DNA of 64,000 nucleotides, taken from positions 4,829 to 68,828 of the forward strand of contig CAZJWO010000003.1 of assembly GCA_964549735.1 (NCBI GenBank), given 5' to 3'. Each line of letters opens with the position of its first letter. The stretch's first letter is position 1. A program made the position numbers and the translations under genes. Positions 6,343 through 33,262 of this stretch are shown here, piece by piece. Below the pieces are notes generated by a model that was not told the origin of the DNA, ran no database searches, and saw only the letters and a list, made by a program, of their open reading frames with translations. Source of the DNA: an uncultured Fibrobacteraceae bacterium. Its GTDB lineage: Bacteria; Krumholzibacteriota; Krumholzibacteriia; LZORAL124-64-63.

Positions 6343-6832
6343 ATGGCATTGAACATCGGGAAAGAGATCACCGCGCTGAAGCGCATGACCGTGCCAGAAC
6401 TGAGGCGGAAGTACGCCCATGTGTTCGGTGAAGACACGACATCCCGGCACAAGGAGTACTTGATCCGCCGCATCGTCTGGCGTCTCCAGGTGAACCAGGA
6501 CGGCGGCCTGTCCGAACGAGCACGGCTGCGGGCCAGAGAACTGGCCGCTGATTCTGACGTCCGTTTGACCGCCCCGCGTCCTCGCCCGATCGCACCTGGC
6601 GGCGAGATGACCACCGCGCCCATCGAGTTCCCCCAGGACGACCGCCTGCCGATGCCCGGCGCGATCATCACGCGCCAGTACAAGAGCCAGACGGTCGCGG
6701 TGCGGGTCCTGCCGCGGGGATTCGAGTACGAGGGCGAGGTGTACCGGACCTTGAGTGCGGTGGCCAAGAAGGTCACCGGCACCCACTGGAACGGCTTCAA
6801 CTTCTTCAAGTTGGGCCGGGCAGGGGGCACCG

Positions 6833-6843
<11 letters not shown>
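6343..6843 (+). CDS. DUF2924 family protein (typical partner encoded upstream of large serine recombinases)
   Basis: 166 aa. Its stop overlaps the recombinase start (ATGGCCGGTAG). Gene pair arrangement. Confidence 0.65.
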
Positions 6844-8382
<1,539 letters not shown>

Positions 8383-8386
<4 letters not shown>

Positions 8387-8793
8387 CCCGGCCATTAAAG
8401 ATCACCAAGGCTGTCCATTTCCGGAGCATGAGGAAGGGGCGGAAGGAACTCAGAGAAGGTGTGGAGGAATCACCTCCGACGCTCGGCAGCGTGCCGCGCG
8501 TGTCGCGGTTGCTCGCCCTGGCCCTCCACATGGACGAGCTGCGCCGCCGTGGCGAGGTCACCGACTACGCCGAACTGGCCCGCCTGGCCATGGTGACCCG
8601 GGCAAGGATGACCCAGATCATGAGCCTGCTGCTGCTCGCGCCTGATATCCAAGAGGAGATCCTGTTCCTGCCCCGGTCCGACGGCGGCCGCGACCCGATC
8701 CGGGAGAAGGCGGTCCGGCCCATCGCCTCGGTGCCCGACTGGCGGAAGCAGCGGGTCATGTGGCGGGACCTTGTGCTGAATACCGAAATCTGA
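8383..8793 (+). CDS. Small HTH-containing protein coupled to the recombinase (possible regulator or RDF)
   Basis: Start overlaps the recombinase stop. Predicted HTH (DYAELARLAMVTRARMTQIMSLL). Confidence 0.45.
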
Positions 8794-8921
8794 TATTCAT
8801 ACGATTGCTCATATAGCCTGGCAACTCGCCCACCAGGGTACACGGACGCTTCTCGCTGGCGGAAACGTCGGCAGAGCGTCCTATATCTGTTTGTACGCTC
8901 TCAGGCAGGGAAGGAGCCTCG

Positions 8922-10094
8922 ATGCCTCAATTCAATCCCAAGCGAGTCCTTCGACAGACCAGCAACGCTCTGCTGAAGGAGTTTTTTGAACAGCAGAATT
9001 TGCATACACAGATTTCATGGGATCAACTGCGGGAAACCCAGGTTGATGAGGTGTTCCGTGCCCTGCAGGCGATCCCTGACGATCCGCGAGAGAAGATCGA
9101 GGTTGTCCTACAAGACCTGGATGACGTCGCGAATGAAGATGGCGTTCAGGTGATGATCGAGGAAGCCTTGTTCCGAGGCGTGGACATCGCCGACGACCTG
9201 GAGGCAATGGACAGCCGGTTCGACAAGGCGATGTGGGTTCTGCTTCGGTACCCGGATATCTGGAAAGCGGCATCGATGTTCGCCCGTGCTGACGATCTTT
9301 CGTCTGGTCGCTCATGGCGGCGGCGCTGTGATCTGCCGACGGTCAACCCCAACGTAGACGGTGATCACAGGGCGAAACTTGAGAATGCTCTGTCCGCGTT
9401 CTATCGGGAGCGTCAGGGCCGGGGACATCACTGCCACGTCGACCACTTCCTCCGCGGCGGCAAGCAGCACTACTTCTTCGTCTACCTCAGCGACTATGCC
9501 GGTACGCATATCAACTTTGACGACAGCGGTCAATTTCGGCGATCCCCGGAGCGTCGAGCATTCGAGGTGGTCTTCGCCTTTGAGCAGGATTCGGGAACAC
9601 TCGAGATGTTCGCCAAAGGCGGAATCAAGGTTGTGGAACCGCTTCAGCAGATCTTCAGCCGAGTGATTCTCGGCGAGTCGCTGCCCCCAGAAAACCCGAA
9701 GGCGAAGCCCTATAAGCTCGATCACCTGATGAAACGGGGGACGGGGTTTCCGACAGATCCCGAGGACGGCATCAGGGAAGTGTCCATCCGCCGCATGCGG
9801 CTCTCGGTTGTTGGGAATCGCCGCCGCCGGTTGTTGCTTGAGCCCGATGCTGAAGACGGCCCCGATGCAGTCTACGACATGCTCGAGGAGGACCTCAATC
9901 GGCAGATGCTCCCGCGGTCAATTCTCCACGTCACCAAGGTGACGTTCCGGTTCTTGTTCGACGGGCAGGGACGCCGGAAGTCCCTGACATTTGACGTGAC
10001 GTACCCCAACTCATGCAACTTGAAGAGCAAGAGGGAGGAACATCGGTTGCTCGGTGAGAAGTACCTCAAGAGGTTTGGGATCGATGTCACCTGA
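8922..10094 (+). CDS. Unknown protein A (390 aa) of a two-gene low-GC cassette
   Basis: Good-length ORF with an RBS-like GGAAGGAG upstream. GC is ~55% versus ~67% in flanking DNA. No recognisable domain. His/Cys cluster HHCHVDHF. Confidence 0.6.
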   Translation: MPQFNPKRVLRQTSNALLKEFFEQQNLHTQISWDQLRETQVDEVFRALQAIPDDPREKIEVVLQDLDDVANEDGVQVMIEEALFRGVDIADDLEAMDSRFDKAMWVLLRYPDIWKAASMFARADDLSSGRSWRRRCDLPTVNPNVDGDHRAKLENALSAFYRERQGRGHHCHVDHFLRGGKQHYFFVYLSDYAGTHINFDDSGQFRRSPERRAFEVVFAFEQDSGTLEMFAKGGIKVVEPLQQIFSRVILGESLPPENPKAKPYKLDHLMKRGTGFPTDPEDGIREVSIRRMRLSVVGNRRRRLLLEPDAEDGPDAVYDMLEEDLNRQMLPRSILHVTKVTFRFLFDGQGRRKSLTFDVTYPNSCNLKSKREEHRLLGEKYLKRFGIDVT

Positions 10095-11025
10095 TCCACT
10101 CGATCTCATTTGGCGAAGCAGCGACGTTAGGTTGCCGAGGTTTTCCGGCGCGGAGATCGCTTCATGGCAGGCTGGAGTCTTCGAGACGCTGCGCTCTCTC
10201 GGTCTGCTGGTCCCGTGTAAGACCGCCACTCACGCGGTTTGTGGCGCCTGCGATCAAGAGCATGTCGATGAGGTGACCTCGATCGAATACCCAGACGGAG
10301 CCGTTCGCTTCTACATCGTTTGTCCGGAACACGGGCGTGTCGAAATCCAGAAGGAGCAGCTTCTCCAGTGGTCAGTCTGCTTCGATCCGGTTCTTGAATG
10401 CCTCAGAGCCGGGCTTGGTGTGCAGGGAGATCCTGTTGAGGTTGTCCCGTCTCGGCTATGGAATGTAGGACGAACCGCTTTGGCTGGCCGTTCTCGCATC
10501 GTCTGGGTGGGGCGCGGACTGTCCTGGCCTGATGCGGCGTCCTTTGCTGAAGACATGCCATCAGGGGCATCGCCCGTGCTCTTCTATTTGGGACAGCCTC
10601 CCGGTGATGGACTTGTCTCCCTCCCACCGGACTCGGTGGTGGACATCGCCCACGTCATATCCCTGTCGGAGGGCAATCTGATCCTTGATCGTTCTAGCGT
10701 TGGGGATCTGGTCTCCACGCGCCCTTCGCCTCAGAAGAAGAAGCTTTCGAGGAAACGGGCGTCGCGCACGGCCGCCATGGAGGCGCTCAAGAAAGCGATT
10801 CAAGACCATTTGATCAGCGCTCGGGACCATGCCTACCGCCTGATTGAGGACGACAAGACGCCTGAGCTTCTTCCCAGACCGACCCAGCAGCTACTCGCGA
10901 AGCAGCTGGAACTTTCGAGATCGTCTGTAAGCCGTGCTCTTGCTGATGGGAGTGACAAGGAGCTGACGATCCTCTGGGAGATCGCCAATGACCTCGATCA
11001 GGTCATGAAATATAAAGCCCGTTGA
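10084..11025 (+). CDS. Unknown protein B (~313 aa), translationally coupled to A; N-terminal Cys/His zinc-ribbon-like motif, C-terminal HTH-like segment
   Basis: ATGTCACCTGA start/stop overlap with gene A. CKTATHAVCGAC...CPEHG. C-terminal LLAKQLELSRSSVSRALADG. Confidence 0.55.
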   Translation: MSPDPLDLIWRSSDVRLPRFSGAEIASWQAGVFETLRSLGLLVPCKTATHAVCGACDQEHVDEVTSIEYPDGAVRFYIVCPEHGRVEIQKEQLLQWSVCFDPVLECLRAGLGVQGDPVEVVPSRLWNVGRTALAGRSRIVWVGRGLSWPDAASFAEDMPSGASPVLFYLGQPPGDGLVSLPPDSVVDIAHVISLSEGNLILDRSSVGDLVSTRPSPQKKKLSRKRASRTAAMEALKKAIQDHLISARDHAYRLIEDDKTPELLPRPTQQLLAKQLELSRSSVSRALADGSDKELTILWEIANDLDQVMKYKAR

Positions 11026-11201
11026 ATTCACTTGTGCTCGTTATCTGCAACTGCAACCCCGATAAGTGCGCATGTAACCGACTGTGACGTAAAGACATAA
11101 GAATAAATCCATAGAATCCCGCCTATTTGCTGCAACTCCTCCGGAGGGTGAAGGGCCGTGCACGACGCGCAGCCCCATCACCCAACCCGCGAGGAGACAC
11201 A

Positions 11202-11528
11202 ATGCAGCTTGCAGTCAAGTCTCAACTAACTCCCAGCCAGGTCCAACTGGTCGAGCTGATGCAGCGTATCGCGTTCGGCGCAATCGAGGATCTCGTCATC
11301 TGTGACGGAACGCCGGTGTTCGACCCGCACCCCCGTGTAATCCGAGATGTGAAATTCGGCGGTAGCAATGGCCCGCGCCCGGAAGCGGATCTCTCGGATT
11401 TCTCCCTGAAGTCAAGTGTCCAGGAGCTCATGGCCGTTCTCTCCGCCCTCGGCAACGCAACCGTGCGCCGCCTCGAGGTCAAGCACGGCCTGCCCTTCCG
11501 GATGCAGGTGGAGGAGGTCGCTGCCTAA
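11202..11528 (+). CDS. Hypothetical phage early protein
   Basis: ORF starting MQLAVKSQLTPSQVQLVELMQRIAFG.... Preceded by an AT-richer region with CTGCAAC repeats. Confidence 0.4.
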   Translation: MQLAVKSQLTPSQVQLVELMQRIAFGAIEDLVICDGTPVFDPHPRVIRDVKFGGSNGPRPEADLSDFSLKSSVQELMAVLSALGNATVRRLEVKHGLPFRMQVEEVAA

Positions 11529-11713
11529 GACAAGGGGCCGGCCGCCCCAACGCAATCCCTGACTAATCGTCACCAGACATTCAACCGGCCACGAGGTGGA
11601 GGTGCATGTGGGTGTCGCCGTAACGGCGAACCACGTGCGCTTCCACCGCGCCGGTCTATGCGCTGCCTCGTGCGACACCTTCGCGCCTCTCCGCGGCCTC
11701 AGGAGAGGTTCCG

Positions 11714-12337
11714 ATGGAGAACACGAAGCAGCGCATCCTCGACGGATACGCCCGAGACGTCATTCGCCACAAAGCCAGGCAACTGATCGGCAAGTACGGA
11801 TTCACCCGCGACGACTTCGACGACCTGCAGCAGGAGATGATGCTGGACCTGCTGCGCCGCCTCGGCAAGTACGACCCCAGCAAGGCGGGCCTCAGCACCT
11901 TCGTGGCCCGCATCGTCGACCGCAAGGTCTCCACCCTGATCCGCCACCAGCGGCAAGAGAAGCGCGACTACCGTCGGCCGGTCTGCTCGCTGGATGCGCA
12001 GGTCGAGGACCAGGACGGCCAGGCGCGGGGGCTCGACGAGGTCCTCAGCCAGGATGCCTTCGACGATGAGGTCGCACGGCACGATCGGCCACAGGCCGAG
12101 CGCCTGGACCTGAGACTCGATCTCTCGCTGGTGCTCGACGAGTTGCCCGAAGATCTGCGGCAACTCGCCCTCCGCCTGCAGACCCGGACCGTGGCCGAGA
12201 TCGCCCGCGAGTTGGGCGTGCCGCGCAGCACGCTCTACGAGAAGAGCATCGCCCGCCTGCGGAAGATCTTCGAGGACAAGGGGCTGCGCGAATACCTGGG
12301 CGAGGCCCGACACCCCGGCAAGGGACCGGGTAAGTAA
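11714..12337 (+). CDS. Sigma-70 family (ECF-like) RNA polymerase sigma factor, phage-encoded
   Basis: Region-2-like FTRDDFDDLQQEMMLDLLRRLGKYDP...STFVARIVDRKV and a region-4 HTH (TVAEIARELGVPRSTLYEKSIARLRKI). Confidence 0.7.
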   Translation: MENTKQRILDGYARDVIRHKARQLIGKYGFTRDDFDDLQQEMMLDLLRRLGKYDPSKAGLSTFVARIVDRKVSTLIRHQRQEKRDYRRPVCSLDAQVEDQDGQARGLDEVLSQDAFDDEVARHDRPQAERLDLRLDLSLVLDELPEDLRQLALRLQTRTVAEIARELGVPRSTLYEKSIARLRKIFEDKGLREYLGEARHPGKGPGK

Positions 12338-12381
12338 CCACCAGAGGGCCGACGGCCCAGGACCTGAGGAGAGGAATCACG

Positions 12382-12687
12382 ATGAATCGAGAAGTCCACC
12401 GCTACGAGTTCGAGGCCTCGGTGCCCGCGGACGAGATCGAAAGCACGCTGCTTCTGGCCGTGCTCGCGGTCGAGGGTCTGCACGGCACCTCGCGGGTGCG
12501 GCTCGACGCGAAGTACTGCATCGACACCGAAAAGCACGCCTGCGTGATCGACGCCGACACCGTCGTCGGCCAGGACATCAGCCGCATCTTCACGGGCTTC
12601 GCCATCCGCGAGTTCGGCGAGGAGGCCTTCACGGTCGGCCGCGCCGAACGCATGCCCAAGACCGAAACGGAGGACCTGAGCGCATGA
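12382..12687 (+). CDS. Hypothetical protein
   Basis: 101-aa ORF. Its stop overlaps the start of the downstream nuclease gene. Confidence 0.45.
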   Translation: MNREVHRYEFEASVPADEIESTLLLAVLAVEGLHGTSRVRLDAKYCIDTEKHACVIDADTVVGQDISRIFTGFAIREFGEEAFTVGRAERMPKTETEDLSA

Positions 12688-13511
12688 ACCTGCCCGGAGT
12701 ATTCAAACGACGCGAGTGGAGCGTCCAGGACCTGATCCGCGAACCTGCCGACGTCTACCACGCCAAGGCCGGCGAGTATCTCTCCAGCCACATGCTGGCC
12801 GAGTTCCGCCGCAACCCTCTGCTCTTCCACAAGAAGGAACTCGGTCTGATCGAGGATCAGGACCGGCCGGCGTACGTCCTCGGCCGGGCCGCCCATGTTC
12901 TGATCCTCGAGGGTCGGGAAGCCTACGAGCAGGCCTACGCATTCGGTGGACCGATCAACCCCAGGACGGGCCAGCCGTTCGGCAGCCGCACCAAGGCATT
13001 CCGCGAGTGGGCGGAAGCCCAGGGCAAGCCCGTGCTCGATGACGACCAGGCAGCTCTAGTCGAGAACCTGAACACGTCGGTGCAGGCCCACGAGCATGCC
13101 TCGAACCTGCTGGCCGACGGCATCGCCGAGGGTGTGATCCGTGCCGAGTACTGCGGCCTGCCGTGCCAGGCGCGCCTGGACTGGCTGAACCCCGAGCGCG
13201 GGATCGTCGACCTGAAGACCTGCGACAACCTCGACTGGCTCCAGATGGACGCACGCAGCTACGGCTACGTCTACCAGCTGGCCTTCTACCGGTCCCTGGC
13301 TGCCACGCTCACCGGCGAGCGGCTTCCCGTCTACATGATCGCTGTGGAGAAACGCGAACCGTTGCGGACGGGCGTCTGGCGCATGAGCGAGGAGGTCCTC
13401 GGTCTCGCCCAGAAGGAGAACGAAGAAGCCATCGCGCGCCTGATCGCCTGCCGTGAGAAGGACGAGTGGCTCACCGGCTACGAGGACATCCGCACCTACG
13501 ACCTGATCTGA
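12684..13511 (+). CDS. PD-(D/E)XK family nuclease (phage exonuclease, RecB/Cas4-like fold)
   Basis: Motifs ...RLDWLNPERGIVDLKTCD... (D...D/E-x-K) and YVYQLAFY (QxxxY). Typical partner of Sak4/SSB recombination modules. Confidence 0.65.
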   Translation: MNLPGVFKRREWSVQDLIREPADVYHAKAGEYLSSHMLAEFRRNPLLFHKKELGLIEDQDRPAYVLGRAAHVLILEGREAYEQAYAFGGPINPRTGQPFGSRTKAFREWAEAQGKPVLDDDQAALVENLNTSVQAHEHASNLLADGIAEGVIRAEYCGLPCQARLDWLNPERGIVDLKTCDNLDWLQMDARSYGYVYQLAFYRSLAATLTGERLPVYMIAVEKREPLRTGVWRMSEEVLGLAQKENEEAIARLIACREKDEWLTGYEDIRTYDLI

Positions 13512-13515
13512 CACA

Positions 13516-13600
13516 GGCGGAAGCGGGCGGAATGGCGTGACGCGCAGTCGCCCGGGCGCGTCGGGACTCCCTGGGTCCGCCCGCTTCCCCACCAACCCTA
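13516..13600. terminator. Long inverted repeat (13-bp arms GGAAGCGGGCGGA / TCCGCCCGCTTCC) downstream of the nuclease gene
   Basis: Seen directly in sequence. The arms are separated by ~45 nt. Confidence 0.3.
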
Positions 13601-13619
13601 GTCGAATGGAGAAACGACC

Positions 13620-14402
13620 GTGAAACTCTTGCAGCAAGTCACCACAGGCCGGAGCCCGGCACCGAGGCGGGTGATGCTCTACGGCACCCATGGCATCGGC
13701 AAGTCCACCTTCGCCTCGTGCGCGCCGGCCCCGGTGTTCATCCAGACCGAGGACGGCCTCGGCGAGATCGACTGCGCCAAGTTCCCGGTCACCACGACGT
13801 TCGATGAGGCCATGCAGGCCCTGTCGGAGCTGTACACCGACGAGCACTCCTATCGAACCGTCGTGGTCGATTCGCTGGACTGGCTGGAGCGGCTGATCTG
13901 GGCCGACGTCTGCCGTCGCCGCAACGTCGAGAGCATCGAGGACATCGGCTACGCCAAGGGTTACGTGTTCGCCCTGACGCAGTGGCGCGAGTTCCTCGAC
14001 GGCCTGGCGGCACTGCGCGGCGAGAAGGGCATGACGACGATCCTGATCGCCCACGCCCGCATCGAACGCTTCGAGAACCCCGAGACGGAATCCTACGACC
14101 GCTACGTGCCGCGCCTGCACCGCCTGGCTTCCCAGGTCCTGCAGGAGTGGTGCGACGAGGTCATGTTCGCCACGTTCAAGGTCTACACCAAGCAGACCGA
14201 CGAGGGCTTCGACCGCAAGCGCAACCAGGGCATCGGCACTGGCGAGCGAGTCCTGCGCACCGTCGAGCGCCCCTCCCACGTGGCCAAGAACCGTCTCGCC
14301 CTTCCCGAAGAGATGCCTCTGGCCTGGAATGTCTACGCCCAGCACATCCACCCCGAACCTGTCAGCGCGCCCCAGAGCGGCAAGACCAAAGGAGCCAAGT
14401 AG
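13620..14402 (+). CDS. Sak4-like AAA/RecA-fold ATPase (phage single-strand annealing / recombination)
   Basis: Walker A (LYGTHGIGKST). GTG start. Size ~260 aa. Followed by DUF669 and RusA. Confidence 0.65.
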   Translation: MKLLQQVTTGRSPAPRRVMLYGTHGIGKSTFASCAPAPVFIQTEDGLGEIDCAKFPVTTTFDEAMQALSELYTDEHSYRTVVVDSLDWLERLIWADVCRRRNVESIEDIGYAKGYVFALTQWREFLDGLAALRGEKGMTTILIAHARIERFENPETESYDRYVPRLHRLASQVLQEWCDEVMFATFKVYTKQTDEGFDRKRNQGIGTGERVLRTVERPSHVAKNRLALPEEMPLAWNVYAQHIHPEPVSAPQSGKTKGAK

Positions 14403-14404
14403 CC

Positions 14405-14860
14405 ATGGCGAACCTCAACGGATTCGATGCAGCGACCGTCGACCCCGCGAACGATTTCGAGCCTCTGCCCGCGGGCAAGTACCTCGCGGTGATCACCGAC
14501 TCGGAGATGAAGCCGACCAAGGCCGGAACCGGCCACTACCTCCAGATGACGTTCCAGGTCATCGACGGCCCGTTCAAGAACCGGCTGCTGTGGTCCCGGC
14601 TCAACCTGGACAATCCGAACCGCCAGGCGGTCCAGATCGCCCAGGGCGAACTGTCGGCCATCTGCCGGGCGGTTGGCGTGCTGCAGCCCAAGGACTCGGT
14701 CGAGCTGCACAACCTGCCCCTGCAGATCACCGTGAAGTGCAAGAAGCGGGACGACACCGGCGACGTGGTCAACGAGATCCGCGGTTACGCCGGCAAGGAC
14801 GCCGCCGCGGGCGTGCCCCAGCAGGAGACCTCGAGCACTCCGCCCTGGGCCCGCCGATGA
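14405..14860 (+). CDS. DUF669 family phage protein (SSB-like partner of Sak4)
   Basis: 151 aa, MANLNGFDAATVDPANDFEPLPAGKYLAVITDSE.... Conserved order after Sak4. Confidence 0.6.
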   Translation: MANLNGFDAATVDPANDFEPLPAGKYLAVITDSEMKPTKAGTGHYLQMTFQVIDGPFKNRLLWSRLNLDNPNRQAVQIAQGELSAICRAVGVLQPKDSVELHNLPLQITVKCKKRDDTGDVVNEIRGYAGKDAAAGVPQQETSSTPPWARR

Positions 14861-15210
14861 TCGAGGTCGAGCTCCCGTTCCCCCCGTCGGTGAACCACTA
14901 CTACCGGCGGGTCGGCCCCCGGACGCTCATCAGCCGCGAGGGGCGCAGGTTCCGTGAACGGGTCTGCGCCACGCTCGCCCGCCTCGGGATCGAGCGTTTG
15001 GAAGGGCCGCTGCACCTGGAGATCGAGGTGTACCCGCCGGACCGGCAGCGCAGGGATATCGACAACGTTCAGAAGGCGCTCCTGGACGCCCTCCAGCACG
15101 GCGGTCTGTACGCCGACGATAGCCAGATCAAGAAGCTGAACATCGAGATGCGCGGGCGCGTCCGCGGCGGCCGTACCCTCGTGCGCTTGGAGGAACTCGC
15201 CGATGCTTGA
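14857..15210 (+). CDS. rusA: RusA-family Holliday junction resolvase
   Basis: 117 aa, MIEVELPFPPSVNHYYRR...DIDNVQKALLDAL...D. ATGA overlap with the upstream gene. Confidence 0.75.
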   Translation: MIEVELPFPPSVNHYYRRVGPRTLISREGRRFRERVCATLARLGIERLEGPLHLEIEVYPPDRQRRDIDNVQKALLDALQHGGLYADDSQIKKLNIEMRGRVRGGRTLVRLEELADA

Positions 15211-16924
15211 ACTGAGGCCGTACCAGCAAGCGTCGGTGGACGCGATCTACCGTCACCTCAGAGAACGGGACGACAACCCGTGCGTGGTGATCCCCACCGG
15301 CGGCGGCAAGACACCCGTCATGGCCACGGTCTGCCGCGACGCGGTGGGCCGGTGGGGCGGCCGGGTCCTGATCCTGGCTCACGTGAAGGAGTTGCTGGAG
15401 CAGGCGCTGGAGAAGATCCAGATCGTGGCGCCCGAGATGTGGATGAAGACCGGGCTCTACTCGGCCGGGCTGAAGAGCCGCGACACAGAGCACCCGATCA
15501 TCATCGCCGGCATCCAGTCGGTGTACAGGCGGGCCTGCGAACTCGACGCATTCGACCTGGTGATCATCGACGAGGCCCACATGATCCCGCCCGATGGCGA
15601 TGGGATGTACCGGACCTTCCTCGACGACGCCAGGAAGGTGAACCCGAATCTGCGGGTGATCGGCCTGACCGCGACGCCGTTCCGGATGAAGAGCGGGATG
15701 ATCTGCGAGCCCGGCAACGTCCTGAACGAGGTCTGCTACGAGATCGGCGTGAAGGAACTGATCGTCCAGGGCTACCTCTGCCCGTTGGTGACCAAGGGGG
15801 CGGCCCAACCGTTGGACACCTCGAGCCTGCACGTGCGCGCGGGCGAGTTCATCGCCAGTGAGGCCGAGGAGTTGATGGACACCGACGAACTCGTGGAGTC
15901 GGCCTGTCGGGAGATCGTCGAGCAGGCGCAGGCGCGCCGGTCGGTGCTCGTGTTCACCACCGGTATCCGGCACGCGGAGCACGTCGCCGCGGTGCTGGGC
16001 CGGATGGCGAGCGAGCCCGTGGCCACGGTGTTCGGCGAGACGGCGAGCGAGGAGCGCGACCGGGTCCTGGCTCAGTTCAAAGAGGGTCGGATCAAGTACC
16101 TGGTCAATGTCAACGTGCTCACCACTGGGTTCGACGCCCCGAACATCGACTGCGTGGCCATGATGCGGCCGACGCTGTCCCCGGGCCTCTACTACCAGAT
16201 GGTCGGGCGGGGCTTCCGTCTGTGCGAGGGGAAGGAGAACTGCCTGGTTCTGGACTTCGGCGGCAACGTGCTGCGGCACGGGCCGGTCGACGCCATCCGG
16301 GTCCGGGAGGTCCACCACCGTGCGGGCGGCGAGGCGCCGGCCAAGCAGTGCCCCGTGTGCAGGAGCCTGATCGCCACCGGCTATACTGTCTGCCCTGACT
16401 GCGGCTACGAGTTCCCACCGCCGGAACGGCAACAGCACGACGCCACAGCATCCACCGAGGGCATCCTGTCGGGCGAGGTCGCGACGTCGGTCCACGAGGT
16501 CCGCGAGGTCTTCTACAGTGTCCACACGAAGAAGGGCGCGCCGGAGGATGCGCCCAAGACGCTGCGGGTCGAGTACGAGGTGGGGTTCCACCAGTACTAC
16601 AGCGAGTGGATCTGCTTCGAGCACGGCGGCTGGGCCCGCCACAAGGCCGAGTCGTGGTGGCGGAAGCGGTCGAACGCTCCGGTGCCGCTGACGGCGGCCG
16701 AGGCCGCGGCCCTGGCCCAGGACGGAGCCCTCTGCGAGACCGGCACCATCACCGTGCGGACGGTGGTCGGGGAGCAGTTCCCGCAGATCGTGGGCTACGA
16801 GCTGGGCGACCGGCCGCCATGGCGGGAGCCCGGGATGGATGATGTCCTCGAGCCGGTGGGCGCGATGGTCGAGGGCGGCGTGCGGGTGTACGACCCGCAC
16901 GATGACGACGATCTACCCTTCTGA
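15203..16924 (+). CDS. SF2 DEAD/DEAH-box helicase (phage replication helicase) with C-terminal Cys4 zinc finger
   Basis: Walker A (TGGGKT), DEAH box (IIDEAHM), helicase C-terminal motifs. CPVCRSL...CPDCGYEF. Confidence 0.8.
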   Translation: MLELRPYQQASVDAIYRHLRERDDNPCVVIPTGGGKTPVMATVCRDAVGRWGGRVLILAHVKELLEQALEKIQIVAPEMWMKTGLYSAGLKSRDTEHPIIIAGIQSVYRRACELDAFDLVIIDEAHMIPPDGDGMYRTFLDDARKVNPNLRVIGLTATPFRMKSGMICEPGNVLNEVCYEIGVKELIVQGYLCPLVTKGAAQPLDTSSLHVRAGEFIASEAEELMDTDELVESACREIVEQAQARRSVLVFTTGIRHAEHVAAVLGRMASEPVATVFGETASEERDRVLAQFKEGRIKYLVNVNVLTTGFDAPNIDCVAMMRPTLSPGLYYQMVGRGFRLCEGKENCLVLDFGGNVLRHGPVDAIRVREVHHRAGGEAPAKQCPVCRSLIATGYTVCPDCGYEFPPPERQQHDATASTEGILSGEVATSVHEVREVFYSVHTKKGAPEDAPKTLRVEYEVGFHQYYSEWICFEHGGWARHKAESWWRKRSNAPVPLTAAEAAALAQDGALCETGTITVRTVVGEQFPQIVGYELGDRPPWREPGMDDVLEPVGAMVEGGVRVYDPHDDDDLPF

Positions 16925-16926
16925 CG

Positions 16927-19080
16927 GTGAATCGGGTGTGTATGGGCGATCCCAAGACGACAATGCTGCAGGCCGCGTTGAGGTATGCGGAGCTCGGATA
17001 CCCGGTCTTTCCGTGCGTTTCGGGCGGGAAGGCCCCCGCGACGGCCCATGGCTTCCTGGACGCCACGACGGACGCCGGGCAGATTGAAGCCTGGTGGACG
17101 GCGCGGCCGGACTCGAACATCGGCATGCCGACCGCAGGCCTTCTGGTCGTTGACGTCGACGGGGCCGAGAACCCCTGGCCAGGCGGTGACCGGGAGGGAA
17201 TGACCAACTGCCCGGTGTCGCTGACTCCTCGCGGCGGTCGGCACCACGTCTTCCGGCAGCCACCGGGCAAAGCATGGAGCAGTACGGCGAGTCGGCTCGC
17301 GCCGAAGGTCGACACCCGGGCCAACGGCGGCTACATCGTCCTGCCGCCCTCGGCGGTGGGCGGGAAACCGTACAAATGGGCCGGGGGATTCGAGACCGCC
17401 CCGGCCGACCTGCCCGAACCCCCCGCGTGGCTCGTGGCGCAGGTTGAGGGAGGGACGGACCTCTTTGAACAGGCGACGGGCGTGGCCACAGTGGGCGGGC
17501 CAGTCGCGCCCCAGGACGCGCCCGTGGCGCCCCAGTGCGCGCCGGCGGCCACCGGTGGCAATGTGATACCAGCCGGGCACAGGAACGCCACGTTGGCGCG
17601 CCTGGGCGGGGCCATGCGCCGGGTTGGGATGAGCCAGGCGGAGATCCTGGCTGCCCTGGCCCGGGCCAACGAGGACCGCTGCAACCCACCGCTCAAGGAC
17701 CGCGAAGTCGAGCGGATCGCGGCGAGCATCGCCCGGTACGAGCCCGATCAGGTGGCCGTCGCGGTGGCGGAGAACCACTGGGGGCAGGACAACGACGAAG
17801 CTCCGGAAGACGAAGTGCCCCAGGATGTCCAGGACCCGGGGCCGATGCCGGACGAGCTGTTCAGGATCCCCGGTTTCGTGTCCGAGGTCATGGACCACTG
17901 CCTGGACACGGCCCCGTATCCGAACCTGGTGATGAGCTTCGCCGGGGCTCTGGCACTGCAGGCGACGCTTGCCGGCCGGAAGGTCCGCGACCCCGGGAAC
18001 AACCGGACGAACCTCTATCTGTTGGGTCTGGCGCACTCGGCAGCCGGCAAGGACAGGCCTCGGAAGCTCAACACCGAGATCCTGCACGCGGTCGGGCTGT
18101 CGCACCAACTCGGAGGACGGTTCGCTTCGGGTGAGGGCATCCAGGATGCCCTCTTCAGCGAGCCTTGCATGCTGTTCCAGACCGACGAGATCGACGGCAT
18201 GCTGCAGTCGATCAACAAGGCCCGCGATGCCCGCCACGAGAACATCATGGGCGCGATGCTGACGATCTATTCGTCGGCCGACTCAGTGTTTCCCATGCGC
18301 CGCAAGGCCGGCCGGGATGCCCCTGGGGCCATCGACCAGCCGTGCCTCGTGGTGTTCGGGACCGCCATCCCGAAGCACTACTACGAGGCACTTTCCGACC
18401 GAATGCTGACCAATGGGTTCTTCGCCCGCATGATCATCCTCGACTGCGGAGGGCGATCGCCAGGGCAGGAGCCGAAGCTCAAGCCCTTGCCGGATCGGGT
18501 TCTCGAGACTGCGCAGTGGTGGGCGGACTTTCAGCCCGGGACAGGCAACCTCGAGAACTGGCACCCGGAACCACGAGTCATCCAACACACGGACGAGGCG
18601 AAGGAGATCCTGGTCGAGATGCGCCTCGAGGCGGAGGCCGAGTACGCGCGGGCCGAGACTGTGGAGGACGAGGCCGGTACGACGGTCTGGGGGCGAGTCA
18701 GCGAGCACGCGAGAAAGCTCGCCCTTCTCTACGCGATCAGCGAGAACCACATCGAGCCGAAGATCGGCGCTGAGGCTGTCGAGTGGGCACGGCGATTCGT
18801 CACGCACCAGGCCCGGCGCATGCTTTTCATGGCCCAGTCCCACGTAGCGGAGAACCCGTTCCAGGGGGAGTGCTTGAAGTTCCTCAAGAAGCTCGGCGGA
18901 GCACCCGGCGGAGAGCTCGCCCACAGCGTTCTCTTGAAGCGGATGAAGGTCGACGCCAAGACCTTCCAGGGGCTCGTGACTACTCTCGAACAGCGCGGAG
19001 ATATCATCACCAGGACCTCCTGCGCGCGCGGCACCACGGCGCGCTTCTACCGGTTGGTGAGCCGCCGTCCCGAGCGGTGA
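16927..19080 (+). CDS. Bifunctional primase-polymerase (Prim-Pol N-terminal domain) with a large C-terminal replication-associated domain
   Basis: N-terminal ...YAELGYPVFPCVSGGKAP...GLLVVDVDG... (Prim-Pol signature). 717 aa. Confidence 0.7.
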   Translation: MNRVCMGDPKTTMLQAALRYAELGYPVFPCVSGGKAPATAHGFLDATTDAGQIEAWWTARPDSNIGMPTAGLLVVDVDGAENPWPGGDREGMTNCPVSLTPRGGRHHVFRQPPGKAWSSTASRLAPKVDTRANGGYIVLPPSAVGGKPYKWAGGFETAPADLPEPPAWLVAQVEGGTDLFEQATGVATVGGPVAPQDAPVAPQCAPAATGGNVIPAGHRNATLARLGGAMRRVGMSQAEILAALARANEDRCNPPLKDREVERIAASIARYEPDQVAVAVAENHWGQDNDEAPEDEVPQDVQDPGPMPDELFRIPGFVSEVMDHCLDTAPYPNLVMSFAGALALQATLAGRKVRDPGNNRTNLYLLGLAHSAAGKDRPRKLNTEILHAVGLSHQLGGRFASGEGIQDALFSEPCMLFQTDEIDGMLQSINKARDARHENIMGAMLTIYSSADSVFPMRRKAGRDAPGAIDQPCLVVFGTAIPKHYYEALSDRMLTNGFFARMIILDCGGRSPGQEPKLKPLPDRVLETAQWWADFQPGTGNLENWHPEPRVIQHTDEAKEILVEMRLEAEAEYARAETVEDEAGTTVWGRVSEHARKLALLYAISENHIEPKIGAEAVEWARRFVTHQARRMLFMAQSHVAENPFQGECLKFLKKLGGAPGGELAHSVLLKRMKVDAKTFQGLVTTLEQRGDIITRTSCARGTTARFYRLVSRRPER

Positions 19081-22109: not shown

Positions 22110-23960
22110 TTACCCCCGCCAGCCATCGATCCACCCCCGGGGGCGTCGCACAGGCATCGACGGCTCGGACTCGGCCGCCGCCTGGACCTCTCGCTGGTGG
22201 GCCAGGGCCGCCGCTCGCTCGGGCAGAGACTTCACGAACGCGGGGCCGAGGATATAGAGGGCCGCCAGGCAATAGACCTCGAGGTCGAGGGCCTCGTTGC
22301 GGTCGCGGGTCTTGATCCACTCACGGACCGTGCCACGGTTCTTCACCCACTTGCGGATGGCCTTCTCCGCGGTCAGCTGGGCGATGTACTCTTCGTCAGT
22401 CCATTCGGGGAGGTGGCAGTAGCCGGGGCCCGGCGACCCGATGCGTAAACGCGAGTAGACGATCTCCTTGCCTGTGTCCACGCAGAGGGTGAACAGCTTC
22501 GCGCGGTACCGGTTGTGAGTAGATGGGCGACCGACCAGGGGCTTGCCTCGCTCGGAACCGCCGCGGACAGCGAACACGCGCCGGTCGATCCTGGCACGGC
22601 AGAACCGGTAGACCTGCTCGGAGTGGTGTCCGCCGCTGTCGACGGCGACGCAGGAGATCGGGACCTTCTGCCCGCTCTCGTGGGCGAACTCGGTTCGCAG
22701 GAAGCGGTCGAGGTCGAGCCAGACCTGGTCGCGCCCCGGATCACCGTGGAACTGGGAGAACGCGACGAGCCAGGACTCCTCCGACGCGCCGTATCCCTTT
22801 ACAGCGCACTCGAGCCGGTCGCCCTGGACATCGACCGAGGCTACGAGCACGCCCACGCCGTTGGGTACCTCGGCTTCGTATCGCTCCGCCCGGGCCAGCA
22901 GGCTGTCCGGGTCGACGGTCTCTCCGCGCTCCTCCCAGGTCTCTCCGAGTACGCTGTTGACCCAGTTCTTCAGCTTGAGGGGGTTCTCCTTGGCCTCCCG
23001 GAACTCGGTGACGGTGGCCGACCACGGGAGCCAGCCCAACGGCGAGTAGAGGCTGGACAGATGAAACCCGATCGTCTCGCCGGTGCCCTTGGCGGTGGGG
23101 CGCCACTGGCCGGATGCGAGCATCTGCGGCTTGAATCGTTCCTCGATCAGGACACCGCAGTTCACGCAGGCCAGAGCCGCGGTCTTGGGGTCATCGTCAC
23201 GCCACCGGATGTTCTCCCACCGCATCCAGTCGAAGTTGCCGCATTCGGGGCAGGGGACGAAGTACCGCCGCTGATCCGAGGCCAGGAATTCCCGCTCGAT
23301 CCGGGAGATGCCCTTGATCGTGGGTGTCGAGACCAGGAACACCTTGCGGCGCGAGTACAGTGGCCCAGTGGTGCGCTTCTCCGCCAGTGCGATCGGATCG
23401 CCCTGGCCGTCGACATCGCCCGGGTACTCGTCGATCTCGTCGCAGAAGAGCCAGCGGATCGGCATCGATTTGACGCCGGTCGCGGAGTTGGAGCCCGTCA
23501 GGAACAGCACGCCGCCGGGGAATTCCTTGATCAGGAGGCTGTTGCCGCCGTCTCGGGACCGCGCCTCGCGGACAAGCTCGTGCAGCACCGGCGTAGTGGC
23601 GATCATGGGATCGAGGCGCTGCCGACTGAACCGCCGGGCTTCGTCCACGGTGGGGCGCAGGACCAGGATCGGCCCAGGTGCGTGGTGCATCACGTAGCCG
23701 AGCCAGTTGTTGCCGGCCTCGGTGCCACCGAGCTGCGAGCCCTTCATGAAGACGACCCGGCGAGCCGGCGACCGCGGACCCAGGGCGTCCATGATCTCGC
23801 GCAGGTAGGGCGTCGTGTCCGTGTGCCAGTGGACAGCAGCATGGCCCGAGCGGTTGCCTAGCACGCGGTGTTCGTCGGCCCATTCGCTGACCGTCAGCCG
23901 CGGCTCCGGCCGCCATCCCGCCCGATAGGCGGCTTCGTAGACGTCACGGCCGTTCTGCAT
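22110..23960 (-). CDS. Phage terminase large subunit, GpA (lambda) family
   Basis: 616 aa. N-terminal ...LTVSEWADEHRVLGNRSGHAAVHWHTDTTPYLREIMDAL...KGSQLGGTEAGNNW... matches GpA-type terminases. Confidence 0.85.
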   Translation of the reverse strand: MQNGRDVYEAAYRAGWRPEPRLTVSEWADEHRVLGNRSGHAAVHWHTDTTPYLREIMDALGPRSPARRVVFMKGSQLGGTEAGNNWLGYVMHHAPGPILVLRPTVDEARRFSRQRLDPMIATTPVLHELVREARSRDGGNSLLIKEFPGGVLFLTGSNSATGVKSMPIRWLFCDEIDEYPGDVDGQGDPIALAEKRTTGPLYSRRKVFLVSTPTIKGISRIEREFLASDQRRYFVPCPECGNFDWMRWENIRWRDDDPKTAALACVNCGVLIEERFKPQMLASGQWRPTAKGTGETIGFHLSSLYSPLGWLPWSATVTEFREAKENPLKLKNWVNSVLGETWEERGETVDPDSLLARAERYEAEVPNGVGVLVASVDVQGDRLECAVKGYGASEESWLVAFSQFHGDPGRDQVWLDLDRFLRTEFAHESGQKVPISCVAVDSGGHHSEQVYRFCRARIDRRVFAVRGGSERGKPLVGRPSTHNRYRAKLFTLCVDTGKEIVYSRLRIGSPGPGYCHLPEWTDEEYIAQLTAEKAIRKWVKNRGTVREWIKTRDRNEALDLEVYCLAALYILGPAFVKSLPERAAALAHQREVQAAAESEPSMPVRRPRGWIDGWRG

Positions 23961-24507
23961 CCGCGATCTCCTGGCAGATCCGTTCGATTTCTTCCTCGAG
24001 GATGCGCTGGACCTCGGCGGGTTCCTGGACGGCGGCCAGGACGGTGGCGAGACGCTCGGGCAGGGCGATCAGCTGGTCGCGCGCCTTGCGGGCCATGTTG
24101 AACGCGCCGAGGCGGACCTCGTCGGCGGGGACGAGTGCACCGCGCCGGCGATCCAGCTCGAGCTTGGCCAGCTGCGCCTGGTACAACTCGCGAGCGGCGC
24201 GGGCTTTGGCGTAGCCGGTGGCTGTGGATGGCGCACCGATGGTCTCGTCGGCCGAGCCCAGGTCCATGGGTTCAGACGGCTCGCCCGGTGTCTTGGCTTG
24301 CTTTGGGTTGCCGGTGATCCGGTTGCGGGGCTTGCTCTGGTCGGTGTTCTGCTGCCACTCCTGGTCGGCAACGACAGGGTCGATTTTCCCGTTCACAGTC
24401 GAGATCCGGCCCGCCTTGATGGCGCGCTGAACTGCGACGTGGGTGACGCCACGCCGACGGGCGTACTCCCGTTGGGAGATCAGCTCCTTCTTCGCTTCCC
24501 TGACCAC
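23944..24507 (-). CDS. Phage terminase small subunit (HTH, Nu1/P27-like)
   Basis: N-terminal HTH ISQREYARRRGVTHVAVQRAIKAGRI. Overlaps the terL start. Acidic coiled-coil C-terminus. Confidence 0.6.
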   Translation of the reverse strand: MVREAKKELISQREYARRRGVTHVAVQRAIKAGRISTVNGKIDPVVADQEWQQNTDQSKPRNRITGNPKQAKTPGEPSEPMDLGSADETIGAPSTATGYAKARAARELYQAQLAKLELDRRRGALVPADEVRLGAFNMARKARDQLIALPERLATVLAAVQEPAEVQRILEEEIERICQEIADAERP

Positions 24508-24510
24508 CGC

Positions 24511-26007
24511 CTATCCATCCTGGTCGGCCCTGCGGTCGGCGGCGATCTCGTCGAAGGCCCGGCCGTCGCCGTCCAGGATGGCCTTCTGGCCGGTGGCTTC
24601 CTGCCAGCGCATCACGATCACGTCCGTGTACGCGGGATCGAGTTCCATGAGGAAGGCATGGCGGCCGGTTTGCTCCGCTCCCATCAGGGTCGAGCCGCTG
24701 CCGCCGAACAGGTCGAGCACGTTCTGGCCGGGCTTCGACGAGTACTGGATGGCCCGCACGGCCAACTCGACCGGCTTCTCGGTCAGGTGGACCATGCTCT
24801 GTGGGTTGACCTTCTTGACCGCCCAGACGTCGACGGCGTTGGTGGGGCCGTAGAACTTGTGGCCGGCTCCTTCGCGCCAGCCGTAGAACGCCCACTCGTG
24901 GTTGCCCATGTAGTCTTTGCGGGTGAGCACGGGGTGCTCCTTCACCCAGATGACCGCCTGGCTGAAGTACAGGCCGCAGGCCTTCAGCACCGGAGGGTAG
25001 TTGGCGCAGTTGGCGTAGCCGCCCCAGATGTAGAACGAGTGCCCCGGCTGCAGCACGCGGGCGATGTTCCCGAACCACGCCAGGAGCATCTCGTCGAAGG
25101 CCTCGTCCGTGACGAAGTCGTTGGCCAGTGGGCGGTCCTTGGGGCGCATCTTCCCGGTGGCCTTCGACTTGGTCTTGTGCCGCGCGAGGTCGAAACCCTG
25201 GTGGTGCATGCCTTTCGCATCGGAGGCCTCGACGGCGCTCTTGGTGGACGGCGGGAAGCTGGACAAGCCGGCGGCAATGGCGTTGTTGGACCGCGGTTCG
25301 ACCTTCACGTTGTAGGGAGGGTCGGTGTTCACGAGGTGGATCTTCTCGCCGCCCAGCAGTCGGTCGACGGCGGCAGAGTCGCAGCTGTCGCCGCACAGTA
25401 GGCGGTGGTTGCCAAGGACCCACAGGTCGCCAAGGCGACTCGTAGGCTCCTCAGGCGGCTCGGGGGCGGCGACCTCCTCCGGGATCTCCTCGTCGAGCAG
25501 GGTGTTGAGTTCGTCCAGGTCGAAGCCGGTCAGCTCGAGGTTGAAGTCGAGATCCTCGAGTGCCTTCAACTCCTCGGACAGCAGATCCTCATCCCAGCCG
25601 GCGTCCAGCGCGAGCCGGTTGTCGGCGATGACGTAGGCCCGCTTCTGGGCCTCGGTCAGGTGGGTGAGCTCGATCACCGGGACCGTGGTCATGCCCAGCT
25701 CGCGGGCCGCCAGCAGCCGACCGTGGCCCGCGATGATGCCGGCCTCGCCGTCGACCAGGATCGGGTTGGTCCACCCGAACTCGAGCAGGCTGGCCGCGAT
25801 CTTGGTGACCTGCTCGGCGCTGTGGGTCCGCGGGTTTCGCTCGTAGGGGCGGAGCCGGTCGATGTTCCAGTGTTCCAGTTTCCCGGGCAGTCTCACGGGA
25901 GACTCGGCACGCGCGGAATCGTCCGTAGGGGCCGTTTCGGGCGCGTCTGAGGCCTTCTTCGATTTACCAGCACTGGAACGTTTGGTGTCGGTGGTAACTT
26001 GTTTCAT
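24511..26007 (-). CDS. ParB-like nuclease domain fused to a DNA N6/N4 methyltransferase (phage anti-restriction/orphan MTase)
   Basis: ParB-N motif (...RNPRTHSAEQV...GHGRLLAAREL...) followed by DPPY (VNTDPPYNV) and SAM-binding motifs. Confidence 0.8.
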   Translation of the reverse strand: MKQVTTDTKRSSAGKSKKASDAPETAPTDDSARAESPVRLPGKLEHWNIDRLRPYERNPRTHSAEQVTKIAASLLEFGWTNPILVDGEAGIIAGHGRLLAARELGMTTVPVIELTHLTEAQKRAYVIADNRLALDAGWDEDLLSEELKALEDLDFNLELTGFDLDELNTLLDEEIPEEVAAPEPPEEPTSRLGDLWVLGNHRLLCGDSCDSAAVDRLLGGEKIHLVNTDPPYNVKVEPRSNNAIAAGLSSFPPSTKSAVEASDAKGMHHQGFDLARHKTKSKATGKMRPKDRPLANDFVTDEAFDEMLLAWFGNIARVLQPGHSFYIWGGYANCANYPPVLKACGLYFSQAVIWVKEHPVLTRKDYMGNHEWAFYGWREGAGHKFYGPTNAVDVWAVKKVNPQSMVHLTEKPVELAVRAIQYSSKPGQNVLDLFGGSGSTLMGAEQTGRHAFLMELDPAYTDVIVMRWQEATGQKAILDGDGRAFDEIAADRRADQDG

Positions 26008-27205: not shown

Positions 27206-27811
27206 CTAGCGCGAAGCGGCTCTCTCTTGCGCGGCATCCTTGAGAATCTCGAGCGCTTCTCGTGTCACGTAGAGCCCGATGCCGAAACCCACAACGAGAT
27301 CTGGATAGCGCGAGCCGGTAACGAATACCAACATGGCCGCGACCAGAACGGCCACGTTGGCGACCACGTCGGCGCGGGTGAAGATCCAGGTGGCGCGGAG
27401 ATGGACCTCGCCGTTGCGGTGCTTGGAGAGCAACCGAAGGACGATGGTGTTCACCACGAGGGCCGGAATGGCCAGAGCGGCCATGATCAGACTCTCCGGT
27501 TCGCTCCCGGTGATGGCTCGGGCGATGACGGCCACGCAAGCACCGAGGCCGAGCAGGAGGAGTATGGCGCCGCTGACTGTCGCCGCGCGCGCCTTGAAGA
27601 GCGATCCGCGGCTCACGGCCGCGATGGCGATCGCGTAGGCGGAAGCGTCGGCGAGCATGTCCAGAGAGTCCGCGATGAGTCCAGACGATTCACCAATGAC
27701 CCCGCCGATCATTTCGACCACGAACATCCCTGCGTTCAAGGCCAGGGCGAGACGGAGGGTCCTGCCCGCCTCGACAGAGGTCACCTCTGCGTGGCATCCA
27801 CAATCACTCAT
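27206..27811 (-). CDS. Cation diffusion facilitator-like membrane protein (TM domain only, ~200 aa)
   Basis: N-terminal CGCH. 5-6 TM helices with the CDF signature (SLIADSLDMLAD). Confidence 0.65.
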   Translation of the reverse strand: MSDCGCHAEVTSVEAGRTLRLALALNAGMFVVEMIGGVIGESSGLIADSLDMLADASAYAIAIAAVSRGSLFKARAATVSGAILLLLGLGACVAVIARAITGSEPESLIMAALAIPALVVNTIVLRLLSKHRNGEVHLRATWIFTRADVVANVAVLVAAMLVFVTGSRYPDLVVGFGIGLYVTREALEILKDAAQERAASR

Positions 27812-27871
27812 TCGAGCCGCTCCTCATGGACCGCGGTGCTATTCTGGTAAACATGGGGGTGAAGGCCCGGA

Positions 27872-28777: not shown

Positions 28778-28807
28778 TCCTGCTACCTCTTGTCGCGGCG
28801 CCTGCTG

Positions 28808-33261: not shown

Positions 33262-33262
33262 G

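Follow-up and report, generated by a model that had tools for sequence, protein, structure and literature searches.

The 64,000-nt window analyzed here, a stretch of contig CAZJWO010000003.1 from an uncultured bacterium, is a prophage, and this study concerns two overlapping forward-strand genes, A and B, that lie between its integrase module and its early genes. Upstream of the pair are a DUF2924 gene, a large serine recombinase gene and the small gene p136. Downstream are a spacer, the small gene sm108 and an early/replication module (11714–19080) encoding a sigma-70/extracytoplasmic function (ECF)-like factor, a DUF3799 nuclease, AAA_24, DUF669, RusA, a DEAD helicase and PrimPol. The opposite strand of the window carries the terminase, major head protein, tape measure and tail genes, and host genes (copper ATPase, cytochrome c and DUF302) are located left of ~5800. 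An initial reading of the letters without database searches (the sequence-only reading) had described A and B as a two-gene, translationally coupled, low-GC cassette of unknown function and as a candidate defense or superinfection-exclusion system.

The open reading frames (ORFs) and their 11-nt overlap, which was read directly, bear out the two-gene cassette (Table 1). An overlap of 11–44 nt is kept in relatives, and an MSPDP N-terminus common to B homologues identifies the ATG at 10084 as the real start of B. The overlap is an indication of translational coupling between A and B, and the lack of a ribosome-binding site for B comparable to that of A fits with it. The contrast in base composition, put at ~55% versus ~67% GC by the sequence-only reading, is real but slightly smaller, at 57–58% versus 65–68% in the flanks. 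GC and GC3 (GC content at third codon positions) are 0.57 and 0.71 in A and 0.58 and 0.63 in B, compared with 0.65–0.68 and 0.85–0.92 in the neighboring phage genes.

Table 1. Features in and around the A–B cassette, in window coordinates.
Feature	Position	Strand	Description
DUF2924	6343–6843	+	Pfam DUF2924, 3e-38
Large serine recombinase	6755–8386	+	Pfam Resolvase, Recombinase, Zn_ribbon_recom
p136 small protein	8383–8793	+	phrog_14161 match
Integrase module (DUF2924, large serine recombinase and p136)	6343–8793	+	Left backbone arm
Exchangeable module (own upstream region, A and B_N)	8764–10734	+	Bounded by two breakpoints relative to the closest relatives
Shine-Dalgarno-like GAAGGAG	8910–8916	+	5 nt 5′ of the A ATG; read from sequence
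Gene A, 390 aa	8922–10094	+	ORF; full-length PHROG 37634 match
A–B overlap ATGTCACCTGA, 11 nt	10084–10094	+	A stop/B start; read directly
Gene B, 313 aa from ATG	10084–11025	+	ORF; alternative GTG at 10054
B N-terminal domain (B_N), aa 1–215	10084–10728	+	Zinc-ribbon-like and alpha/beta; pLDDT >90 over most
B putative zinc ribbon, aa 50–88	10231–10347	+	C53, C56, H60, C80, H83
B linker, aa 216–222, PQKKKLS	10729–10749	+	Basic, disordered; AF2 pLDDT <50; in-frame recombination junction
B C-terminal domain (B_C)	10735–11025	+	Long helix, aa 223–255 (33 residues), and predicted HTH, aa 268–300
B_C predicted HTH, aa 268–300	10885–10983	+	Three short helices in the AF2 model
Regulatory spacer, 176 nt	11026–11201	+	Candidate operator/promoter of the next operon; conserved
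CTGCAACTGCAAC	11045–11057	+	In the B-to-sm108 spacer
TTGCTGCAAC	11127–11136	+	In the B-to-sm108 spacer
sm108 small gene, 108 aa	11202–11528	+	First gene past the CTGCAA motif; co-occurs with B_C (synteny)
Sigma-70/ECF-like factor	11714–12337	+	Sigma70_r2 7.5e-9, weak r4; synteny in >100 loci

The AlphaFold2 (AF2) model of B, with a predicted local distance difference test (pLDDT) value of 87.6, consists of two parts with a disordered, basic linker between them, and both motifs noted in the sequence-only reading reappear in it. The N-terminal part, B_N, contains the Cys/His motif C53-x2-C56...H60...C80-x2-H83, in which C53 and C80 are ≥90% conserved and H83 alternates with N. In the model, which has no metal, the knuckles sit on two beta-hairpins between predicted strands in a zinc-ribbon-like manner; a zinc-ribbon Pfam model touched only 3 of 38 B homologues. 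The C-terminal part, B_C, ends in a helix-turn-helix (HTH)-like segment, to which Pfam HTH models matched at the same position in 31 of the 38 homologues, all below threshold (best HTH_Crp_2, 18.1 bits against a cut-off of 27). These were the only Pfam matches of B, none of them in B_N, and neither NCBIfam, PADLOC nor PDB sequences (searched with the single sequence and with profiles) gave any. Foldseek found no structure in the PDB similar to the B model at E ≤ 1e-3, and neither part had a significant match; the best ones, PSV ORF131 and Rieske-like ribbons, fell above this threshold and were rejected.

The CTGCAAC repeats that had been noticed after the cassette were confirmed and proved to be conserved. 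Three copies lie within 92 nt of the spacer (11045, 11051 and 11130), compared with nine in the 64-kb window. The spacer is conserved among phages with ~45–60% protein identity (e.g., loci L002, L010, L011, L015–L017, L163 and L164), and the core CTGCAACTGCAA does not vary across the spacers of relatives. Among phages with ~55% protein identity, 12 nucleotides are invariant. In most of them TTGCAG stands 5′ of the core, giving an inverted repeat, and a second element, TTyCTGCAAy, is situated ~85 nt downstream. The motif is tightly linked to B_C: CTGCAAyTGCAA, which has 30 matches in 3.1 Mb, is located 3′ of 21 of the 27 distinct B_C-type genes but of only 1 of the 106 genes with other C-terminal domains.

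We compared the window with the closest relatives of its backbone, which were found by anchoring on AAA_24, independently of A (at least 584 IMG/VR matches were anchored on AAA_24 or the DEAD helicase). In the two closest, L163 and L164, AAA_24 is 88–89% identical and the flanks share ~82–83% nucleotide identity (blastn). In both, and in L165, homology to the window ends at 8763/8764, 30 nt short of the end of p136, and other low-GC genes occupy the slot, which thus varies even among close relatives. Homology to L163 resumes at 10735, corresponding to residue 218 of B in the linker. Between these breakpoints L163 has only 668 bp encoding one 241-aa protein, in which a different N-terminal domain is fused in frame to B_C (71% identical). 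The occupant in L164 is a single 401-aa protein composed of yet another N-terminus and B_C. The GC content of the two inserts is 0.49–0.50, against 0.60–0.62 in their flanks. The same cassette as in the window, colinear at 90%, is present in L001.

The shuffling goes both ways. At least five N-termini without relation to each other precede B_C in fusion proteins (P0164–P0172, L011, L013, L163 and L164), and in other clades B_N, which always adjoins A, carries C-termini of other kinds. All A partners have kept B_N, with hhalign probabilities of 99.8% and 96.6% for partners from distant clades. One of the alternative N-terminal domains on B_C (P0164, P0166, P0167, P0169 and P0170; L011, 2674–3717) shows a conserved WRVD-x4-GExKLVVVD sequence, which resembles the PD-(D/E)xK nuclease motif and has a weak PADLOC match to REase_II (E = 0.005). 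As B_N aligns at this motif without those residues, it may be an inactivated relative.

Identity to the window is strongly correlated between A and B_N (r = 0.85–0.89 over 114–115 distinct loci), in contrast to A and the helicase (r ~0 to 0.23) or A and AAA_24 (r = −0.06 to −0.27). The mean identity is 42% for A and 33% for B_N, compared with 54–58% for backbone genes. A and B_N co-evolve, independently of the phage backbone. The possibility that A is a vertically inherited core gene tracking the backbone was ruled out by the lack of correlation (r ~0) with the helicase and AAA_24. The idea that most AAA_24-anchored relatives are devoid of A turned out to be only partly true, since a wider family hidden Markov model (HMM) finds that several of them have very divergent A–B pairs with equally divergent B_N partners (among them L167, 8e-17; L172, 4e-16; L013, 5e-13; L183, 8e-11). 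The truly different occupants of the slot are those of L163, L164, L165, L186, L206 and perhaps L011. Most occupants examined have a predicted C-terminal DNA-binding domain, either B_C (L011, L013, L163, L164 and L172) or an OmpR-type Trans_reg_C domain (L186). The location of these ends just 5′ of the sigma operon suggests regulation.

The surroundings of A were mapped by tblastn over 158 loci with an A gene, drawn from genomes, metagenomes and IMG/VR. A B_N-type gene follows A in 143 of 150 evaluable loci, an XRE–ImmA pair is located 5′ of A in 105 of 131, and sigma or replication genes are found within 6 kb 3′ of A in 114 of 125. The order of genes is nearly invariant: XRE-HTH, ImmA (Peptidase_M78), sometimes DUF2188, A, B and sometimes a small gene are followed by the sigma-like factor, sometimes DUF3799, AAA_24, DUF669, RusA, the DEAD helicase and PrimPol. 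The constant feature of A–B is its position immediately upstream of the phage sigma operon. An integrase module directly 5′ of A, as in the window, occurs in only 8 of 131 loci. Since this adjacency is rare and the window itself is devoid of XRE–ImmA, the "integrase-proximal moron" of the sequence-only reading does not hold as a general description; the constant neighbors are XRE–ImmA upstream and sigma/replication genes downstream. In almost every relative, the GC3 of XRE, ImmA, A and B is below that of the replication genes. A–B adjoins the XRE–ImmA switch in relatives as a neighbor of that system, not as a member.

A relatives are present in 119 species-level genomes, mostly of Planctomycetota, and on 63 IMG/VR viral contigs, and no A homologue was found among the deposited phage genomes of INPHARED. 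Cultured carriers of A–B are Novipirellula rosea, N. herctigrandis and Planctomycetales ZRK34. Several genomes harbor two such prophages, each with its own A–B: JBFMAI010000020.1 (L038 and L066), WYBR01 (L054 and L059), JALHOJ01 (L067 and L071) and DASVYC01 (L055 and L072).

In the relatives that bear ImmA, this gene is followed by a terminator-like hairpin with a T-run. Right after the hairpin, 47–62 nt 5′ of A, we found the conserved element GTTTA[GC]nGTTyA, to which 34 of the 37 matches in 1.65 Mb belong (L002:9950, L010:9952, L016:9943, L044, L095:9954 and ~30 other loci). Related GTTTAG/CTAAAC sites overlap an XRE promoter of the TTGACA-N17-TAGTAT type, and the same 7-mer is found beside this promoter in 5 of 22 loci, against 0.15 expected. 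The element is probably an XRE operator or the promoter of the A–B unit. Taken together, the terminator-like hairpin after ImmA, this element and the sites at the XRE promoter suggest that A–B lies within a repressor-controlled circuit.

The AF2 model of A (pLDDT 85.8; predicted template modeling score 0.82) is that of a soluble protein with three domains, a helical one (residues 1–128) and two of alpha/beta type (132–250 and 284–384). Residues 2–387 align with positions 2–404 of the 416 in the profile of PHROG 37634 (E = 1.2e-42); as this PHROG is unannotated, the match names the family of A and nothing more. No match to A was obtained in Pfam, NCBIfam, PADLOC or PDB sequences, the latter searched with the single sequence and with profiles. 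The earlier statement that no catalytic domain is recognizable in the cassette is therefore correct for A as well as for B_N. Foldseek of the A model against the PDB found nothing at E ≤ 1e-3, so that both proteins are without a significant PDB fold match in this check. The best matches, CENP-N, RdgC and RnlA-NRD, were discarded with template modeling (TM) scores of ≤0.27, as was a BFVD fold match that reached E = 1.6e-4 with a TM score of only 0.16–0.20, which is not meaningful. TY-Chap2, a chaperone-like family (type III secretion system/YbjN), was also rejected: it matched 3 of 45 homologues with a best E-value of 0.0045, and no such structure appeared among the Foldseek matches.

The A family is large. 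At least 225 homologues were found by a word-indexed search, and an exhaustive profile search gave 2,390 cluster representatives at 50% identity (E ≤ 1e-3), 686 of them at E ≤ 1e-30; nearly all representatives are 385–405 aa long. Fewer homologues could be detected for B (52) because B diverges faster. Among 134 diverse A representatives with 27–45% identity to that of the window, polar residues reach ≥90% conservation only at R167, G168 and R178. The HHCHVDHF cluster pointed out by the sequence-only reading is present in A at residues 169–176 but is not conserved in the family, and was dismissed as a metal or catalytic site. With so few polar residues conserved, and this cluster not among them, A looks non-enzymatic. 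These properties also bear on a toxin-antitoxin or addiction module that stabilizes the prophage, with B as the DNA-binding antitoxin and A as the toxin. The overlap of the genes, the HTH in one product and the integrase nearby in the window would suit such a module, but A has neither a toxin-like fold, nor catalytic residues, nor a match to a toxin family in Pfam, PADLOC or the PDB, and no toxin-antitoxin or other PADLOC model was matched by the pair. Both proteins are moreover far larger than those of typical type II pairs, the HTH partner is encoded downstream and carries a large structured extra domain, and the pair keeps its place next to the early operon and not at the ends of the element. 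We regard this explanation as highly improbable.

A constant, motif-linked, putative DNA-binding domain with a swapped N-terminal domain and partner is what would be expected of a transcription factor with an exchangeable input, and on this ground we read A–B as a switch module. Specifically, we consider it plausible, if only tentatively, that A and B_N supply an input that can be exchanged, attached to an HTH as the output acting on early transcription or immunity. A–B would then be a two-protein regulatory switch of a temperate phage, placed where the lysogeny/integration genes meet the early operon. B would be the transcription factor; its long-helix and HTH domain would belong to the phage backbone and most likely bind the TTGCAG/CTGCAA repeats directly downstream, at the head of the sm108–sigma–replication operon. 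The zinc-ribbon-like and alpha/beta domain, B_N, may serve as the docking or input domain for A, a presumably non-enzymatic three-domain partner that translational coupling could provide in fixed proportion. A and B_N would represent a fast-evolving unit of foreign composition, joined to the resident HTH by in-frame recombination within the disordered linker. Each swap might thereby place early transcription under a different signal or partner, and with it the choice between lysis and lysogeny, induction, or the repression of incoming related phages. What the data show is the gene structure, a pair conserved together with its position, the modular domains and their breakpoints, the co-evolution of A with B_N, the link between the HTH and the motif, and a lack of catalytic signatures. 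From these we infer physical binding of A to B and of B to the CTGCAA sites, as well as the direction of control and the kind of signal.

Several observations weigh against this switch. All HTH matches of B_C fall below the Pfam thresholds, and no structural homology, in the PDB or for A in BFVD, points to binding of B to DNA or of A to B. The phage sigma factor could instead recognize the CTGCAA motif as an ECF-type −35 element ("AAC"), in which case the linkage of the motif to B_C could be purely physical, since the recombination junction is located upstream of B_C. A is dispensable for the phage backbone, as L163 shows. By tblastn, XRE–ImmA is missing from the whole window, so the circuit deduced from relatives may not apply here, and the GTTTA[GC]nGTTyA element was likewise not found in the window. 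Finally, defense or counter-defense genes would also be expected to be low in GC, to diverge rapidly, to be swapped between near-identical backbones and to adjoin defense cargo.

The last point concerns the region 5′ of XRE–ImmA–A–B, which in relatives seems to be the actual hotspot for variable cargo in this family of phages. Known defense genes that differ among relatives are often located there, or just 5′ of the integrase module in L001 (L002–L005, 1–8400; L007, 1–8311; L095, 621–8791; L001, 5924–6910; L097, 1–9836). They include a methyltransferase with ResIII, DruA and DUF87; DUF1156 with DUF499 (Hma-like); DUF1848 with type I restriction-modification (RM); and Mrr_cat. In L097, A, a B variant (B′) and a DUF4365 gene stand beside the Hma-like genes without recognizable phage early genes. 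The A–B of L098, which seems to stand alone, lies in the remnant of a prophage whose ImmA is truncated.

We also considered the original proposal that A–B is itself a prophage system for anti-phage defense or superinfection exclusion. Expressed in the lysogen, A and B_N would sense an invader, and the HTH of B would autoregulate the pair or trigger a response such as abortive induction. The compositional distinctness on which this proposal had drawn holds, and the slot is variable: the cassette is low in GC and of foreign composition, is exchanged at fixed breakpoints between 82%-identical backbones, and evolves faster than the backbone and uncoupled from it. The cargo beside XRE–ImmA–A–B (DruA, DUF87 and methyltransferase; DUF1156 and DUF499; type I RM; Mrr), the nuclease-like DUF4365 domain in L097, and the D...ExK motif with its weak REase_II match in P0164, an alternative partner of B_C, are in line with it. 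However, none of the 5,027 models of PADLOC (v2.0.0) was matched at E ≤ 1 by A or B, and the alternative occupants and third genes gave chance-level matches only (REase_II, 0.005; Aga_REase, 1e-4, for the DUF4365 protein). No similarity to defense families was found in Pfam or the PDB either; A has no conserved catalytic residues, and the pair encodes neither a recognizable effector domain nor a membrane protein nor an NTPase. Classical defense islands hardly ever house A–B, L097 being the only island-like case and >90% of the loci lying directly 5′ of sigma/replication genes, and the one that seemed to stand alone, L098, is the prophage remnant. The near-invariant position and a constant part that consists of a predicted DNA-binding domain linked to regulatory DNA of the phage itself are further arguments against a dedicated defense system, which we judge unlikely. 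We give similarly little weight to a variant that unites defense with regulation, in which A and B_N are a hugely diversified and hitherto unrecognized sensor pair, swapped in frame by prophages onto the regulator of their early genes. With it the lysogen would detect a specific threat (an incoming phage, a host defense or a stress signal) and flip its switch in reply, with repressor-type immunity, pre-emptive induction or abortive shutdown as conceivable outcomes.

A locus that is hypervariable between close relatives while its HTH is constant, at the start of the early region and with a non-enzymatic A, also calls to mind early anti-defense or host-takeover loci of the acr–aca type (anti-CRISPR and anti-CRISPR-associated genes). 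A, perhaps with B_N, would inhibit a host system, and the HTH of B an Aca-like autoregulator, fused as in AcrIIA1-type proteins. L163 has a CTGCAAC copy 5′ of its own X–B_C gene (X being the foreign N-terminal domain), which is compatible with autoregulation. Unlike typical anti-defense proteins, A is large (~390 aa), of near-constant length and kept across thousands of clusters, and it co-evolves with B_N as an obligate pair. The best-conserved motif is located downstream of the operon and not upstream, and Foldseek against the PDB and BFVD revealed no similarity to known inhibitors. The anti-defense and toxin-antitoxin explanations are both less compatible with the size of A, its conservation and the downstream motif, and we deem an anti-defense role quite improbable.

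Other parts of the window were noted alongside the pair. DUF2924, the large serine recombinase and a protein of ~136–147 aa (phrog_14161) form a three-gene unit that always stays together in relatives and shifts in position and orientation (L006, 12821–15371; L010, 5640–8141, minus strand); the small gene may encode an accessory or directionality factor. The sm108 protein has a weak match to phrog_16198, "transcriptional repressor" (E = 0.022). A heavy-metal efflux cluster (27206–34654, minus strand) consists of two Cation_efflux/cation diffusion facilitator (CDF) genes, a 1040-aa AcrB/CzcA-type resistance-nodulation-division (RND) pump and an outer-membrane OEP protein. It lies on the phage late-gene strand between the tail genes (from 35891) and the ParB-methyltransferase/terminase genes (22110–26007), and is either metal-resistance cargo of the prophage or a sign of rearrangement. 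The far prophage end (55872–60169) encodes an Eco57I/N6_Mtase-type protein of 752 aa, an N6_N4 methyltransferase of 298 aa and, on the opposite strand, a weak PLD-like protein of 388 aa. These restriction-modification-like genes are a more conventional candidate for the defense cargo of this prophage than A–B. Outside the prophage, a host gene (60948–63287) has a borderline Por_Secre_tail match (type IX secretion sorting; 26.7 bits against a cut-off of 27). Scans of the region for Rfam families (E ≤ 1) and tRNAs found nothing, and a sigma-70 promoter/terminator scan, itself uninformative, found no consensus promoter in 8300–12400. A search of the literature on DUF2924 and on prophages of Planctomycetes yielded nothing relevant.

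A and B define two large protein families without a Pfam, NCBIfam or PADLOC model and without a structural relative. Both occupy a single fixed site, prone to recombination, in temperate phages of a widespread group. The in-frame exchange of the input module offers a clean natural example of modular rewiring in what would be a phage decision circuit. To our knowledge, it has not been described before that an input domain and its partner are swapped in frame, at a defined hotspot of a phage, onto an HTH already resident there, and we know of no genetic switch described for this temperate-phage group, found mostly in Planctomycetota. If the input senses phages or host defenses, A–B would embody a new type of defense logic, and the sensor pair would be a new class of transcription-coupled prophage defense or escape with two new protein folds; otherwise, it would provide a first handle on the control of early transcription in these prophages. 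The related prophages in the cultured N. rosea JCM 17759, N. herctigrandis CA13 and Planctomycetales bacterium ZRK34 make the question testable.

Comparison with known systems sets the pair apart in several respects. A is a full-length member of PHROG 37634, whose function is unannotated. Operons of the acr–aca type and AcrIIA1-like, HTH-fused anti-CRISPRs share with A–B a constant HTH, a hypervariable partner and an early phage locus. In contrast to them, A and B are much larger, are conserved as a pair whose members co-evolve, and recur at a single fixed position in hundreds of phages; nothing similar to a known Acr or Aca protein was found. The rexAB genes of lambda are likewise a two-gene unit, an exclusion system embedded in the immunity region beside the prophage repressor module. 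No sequence similarity of A–B to rexAB was found, B is predicted to be a soluble DNA-binding protein and not a membrane channel, and in relatives A–B has its own promoter region after a terminator. As in one-component regulators, inputs (the B_N, P0164, L163 and L164 types) and outputs (B_C, Trans_reg_C and other C-termini) are shuffled in both directions in B. Unlike these regulators, the input of A–B includes a separate, coupled protein and no recognizable ligand-binding domain, and the exchange takes place in phages at a defined hotspot.

By analogy, A–B appears in function to most resemble the mosaic immunity or early-regulatory modules of temperate phages. There are clear differences: neither A nor B resembles CI, Cro, ImmR or ImmA in sequence or fold; the predicted HTH of B is C-terminal and fused to a zinc-ribbon-like and alpha/beta domain, with an obligate 390-aa partner whose fold had no significant match; all genes are co-directional; and the window is without XRE–ImmA. 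Like the lambdoid cI/cro/operator region and the ImmR–ImmA systems of ICEBs1 and phages, however, A–B is located at the boundary between lysogeny and early lytic genes. In most relatives it adjoins an XRE-type repressor and an ImmA protease, as mosaic immunity regions do, and it has in common with them DNA-binding proteins tied to nearby repeats (as predicted for B), a lower GC content and the exchange of modules between similar phages.

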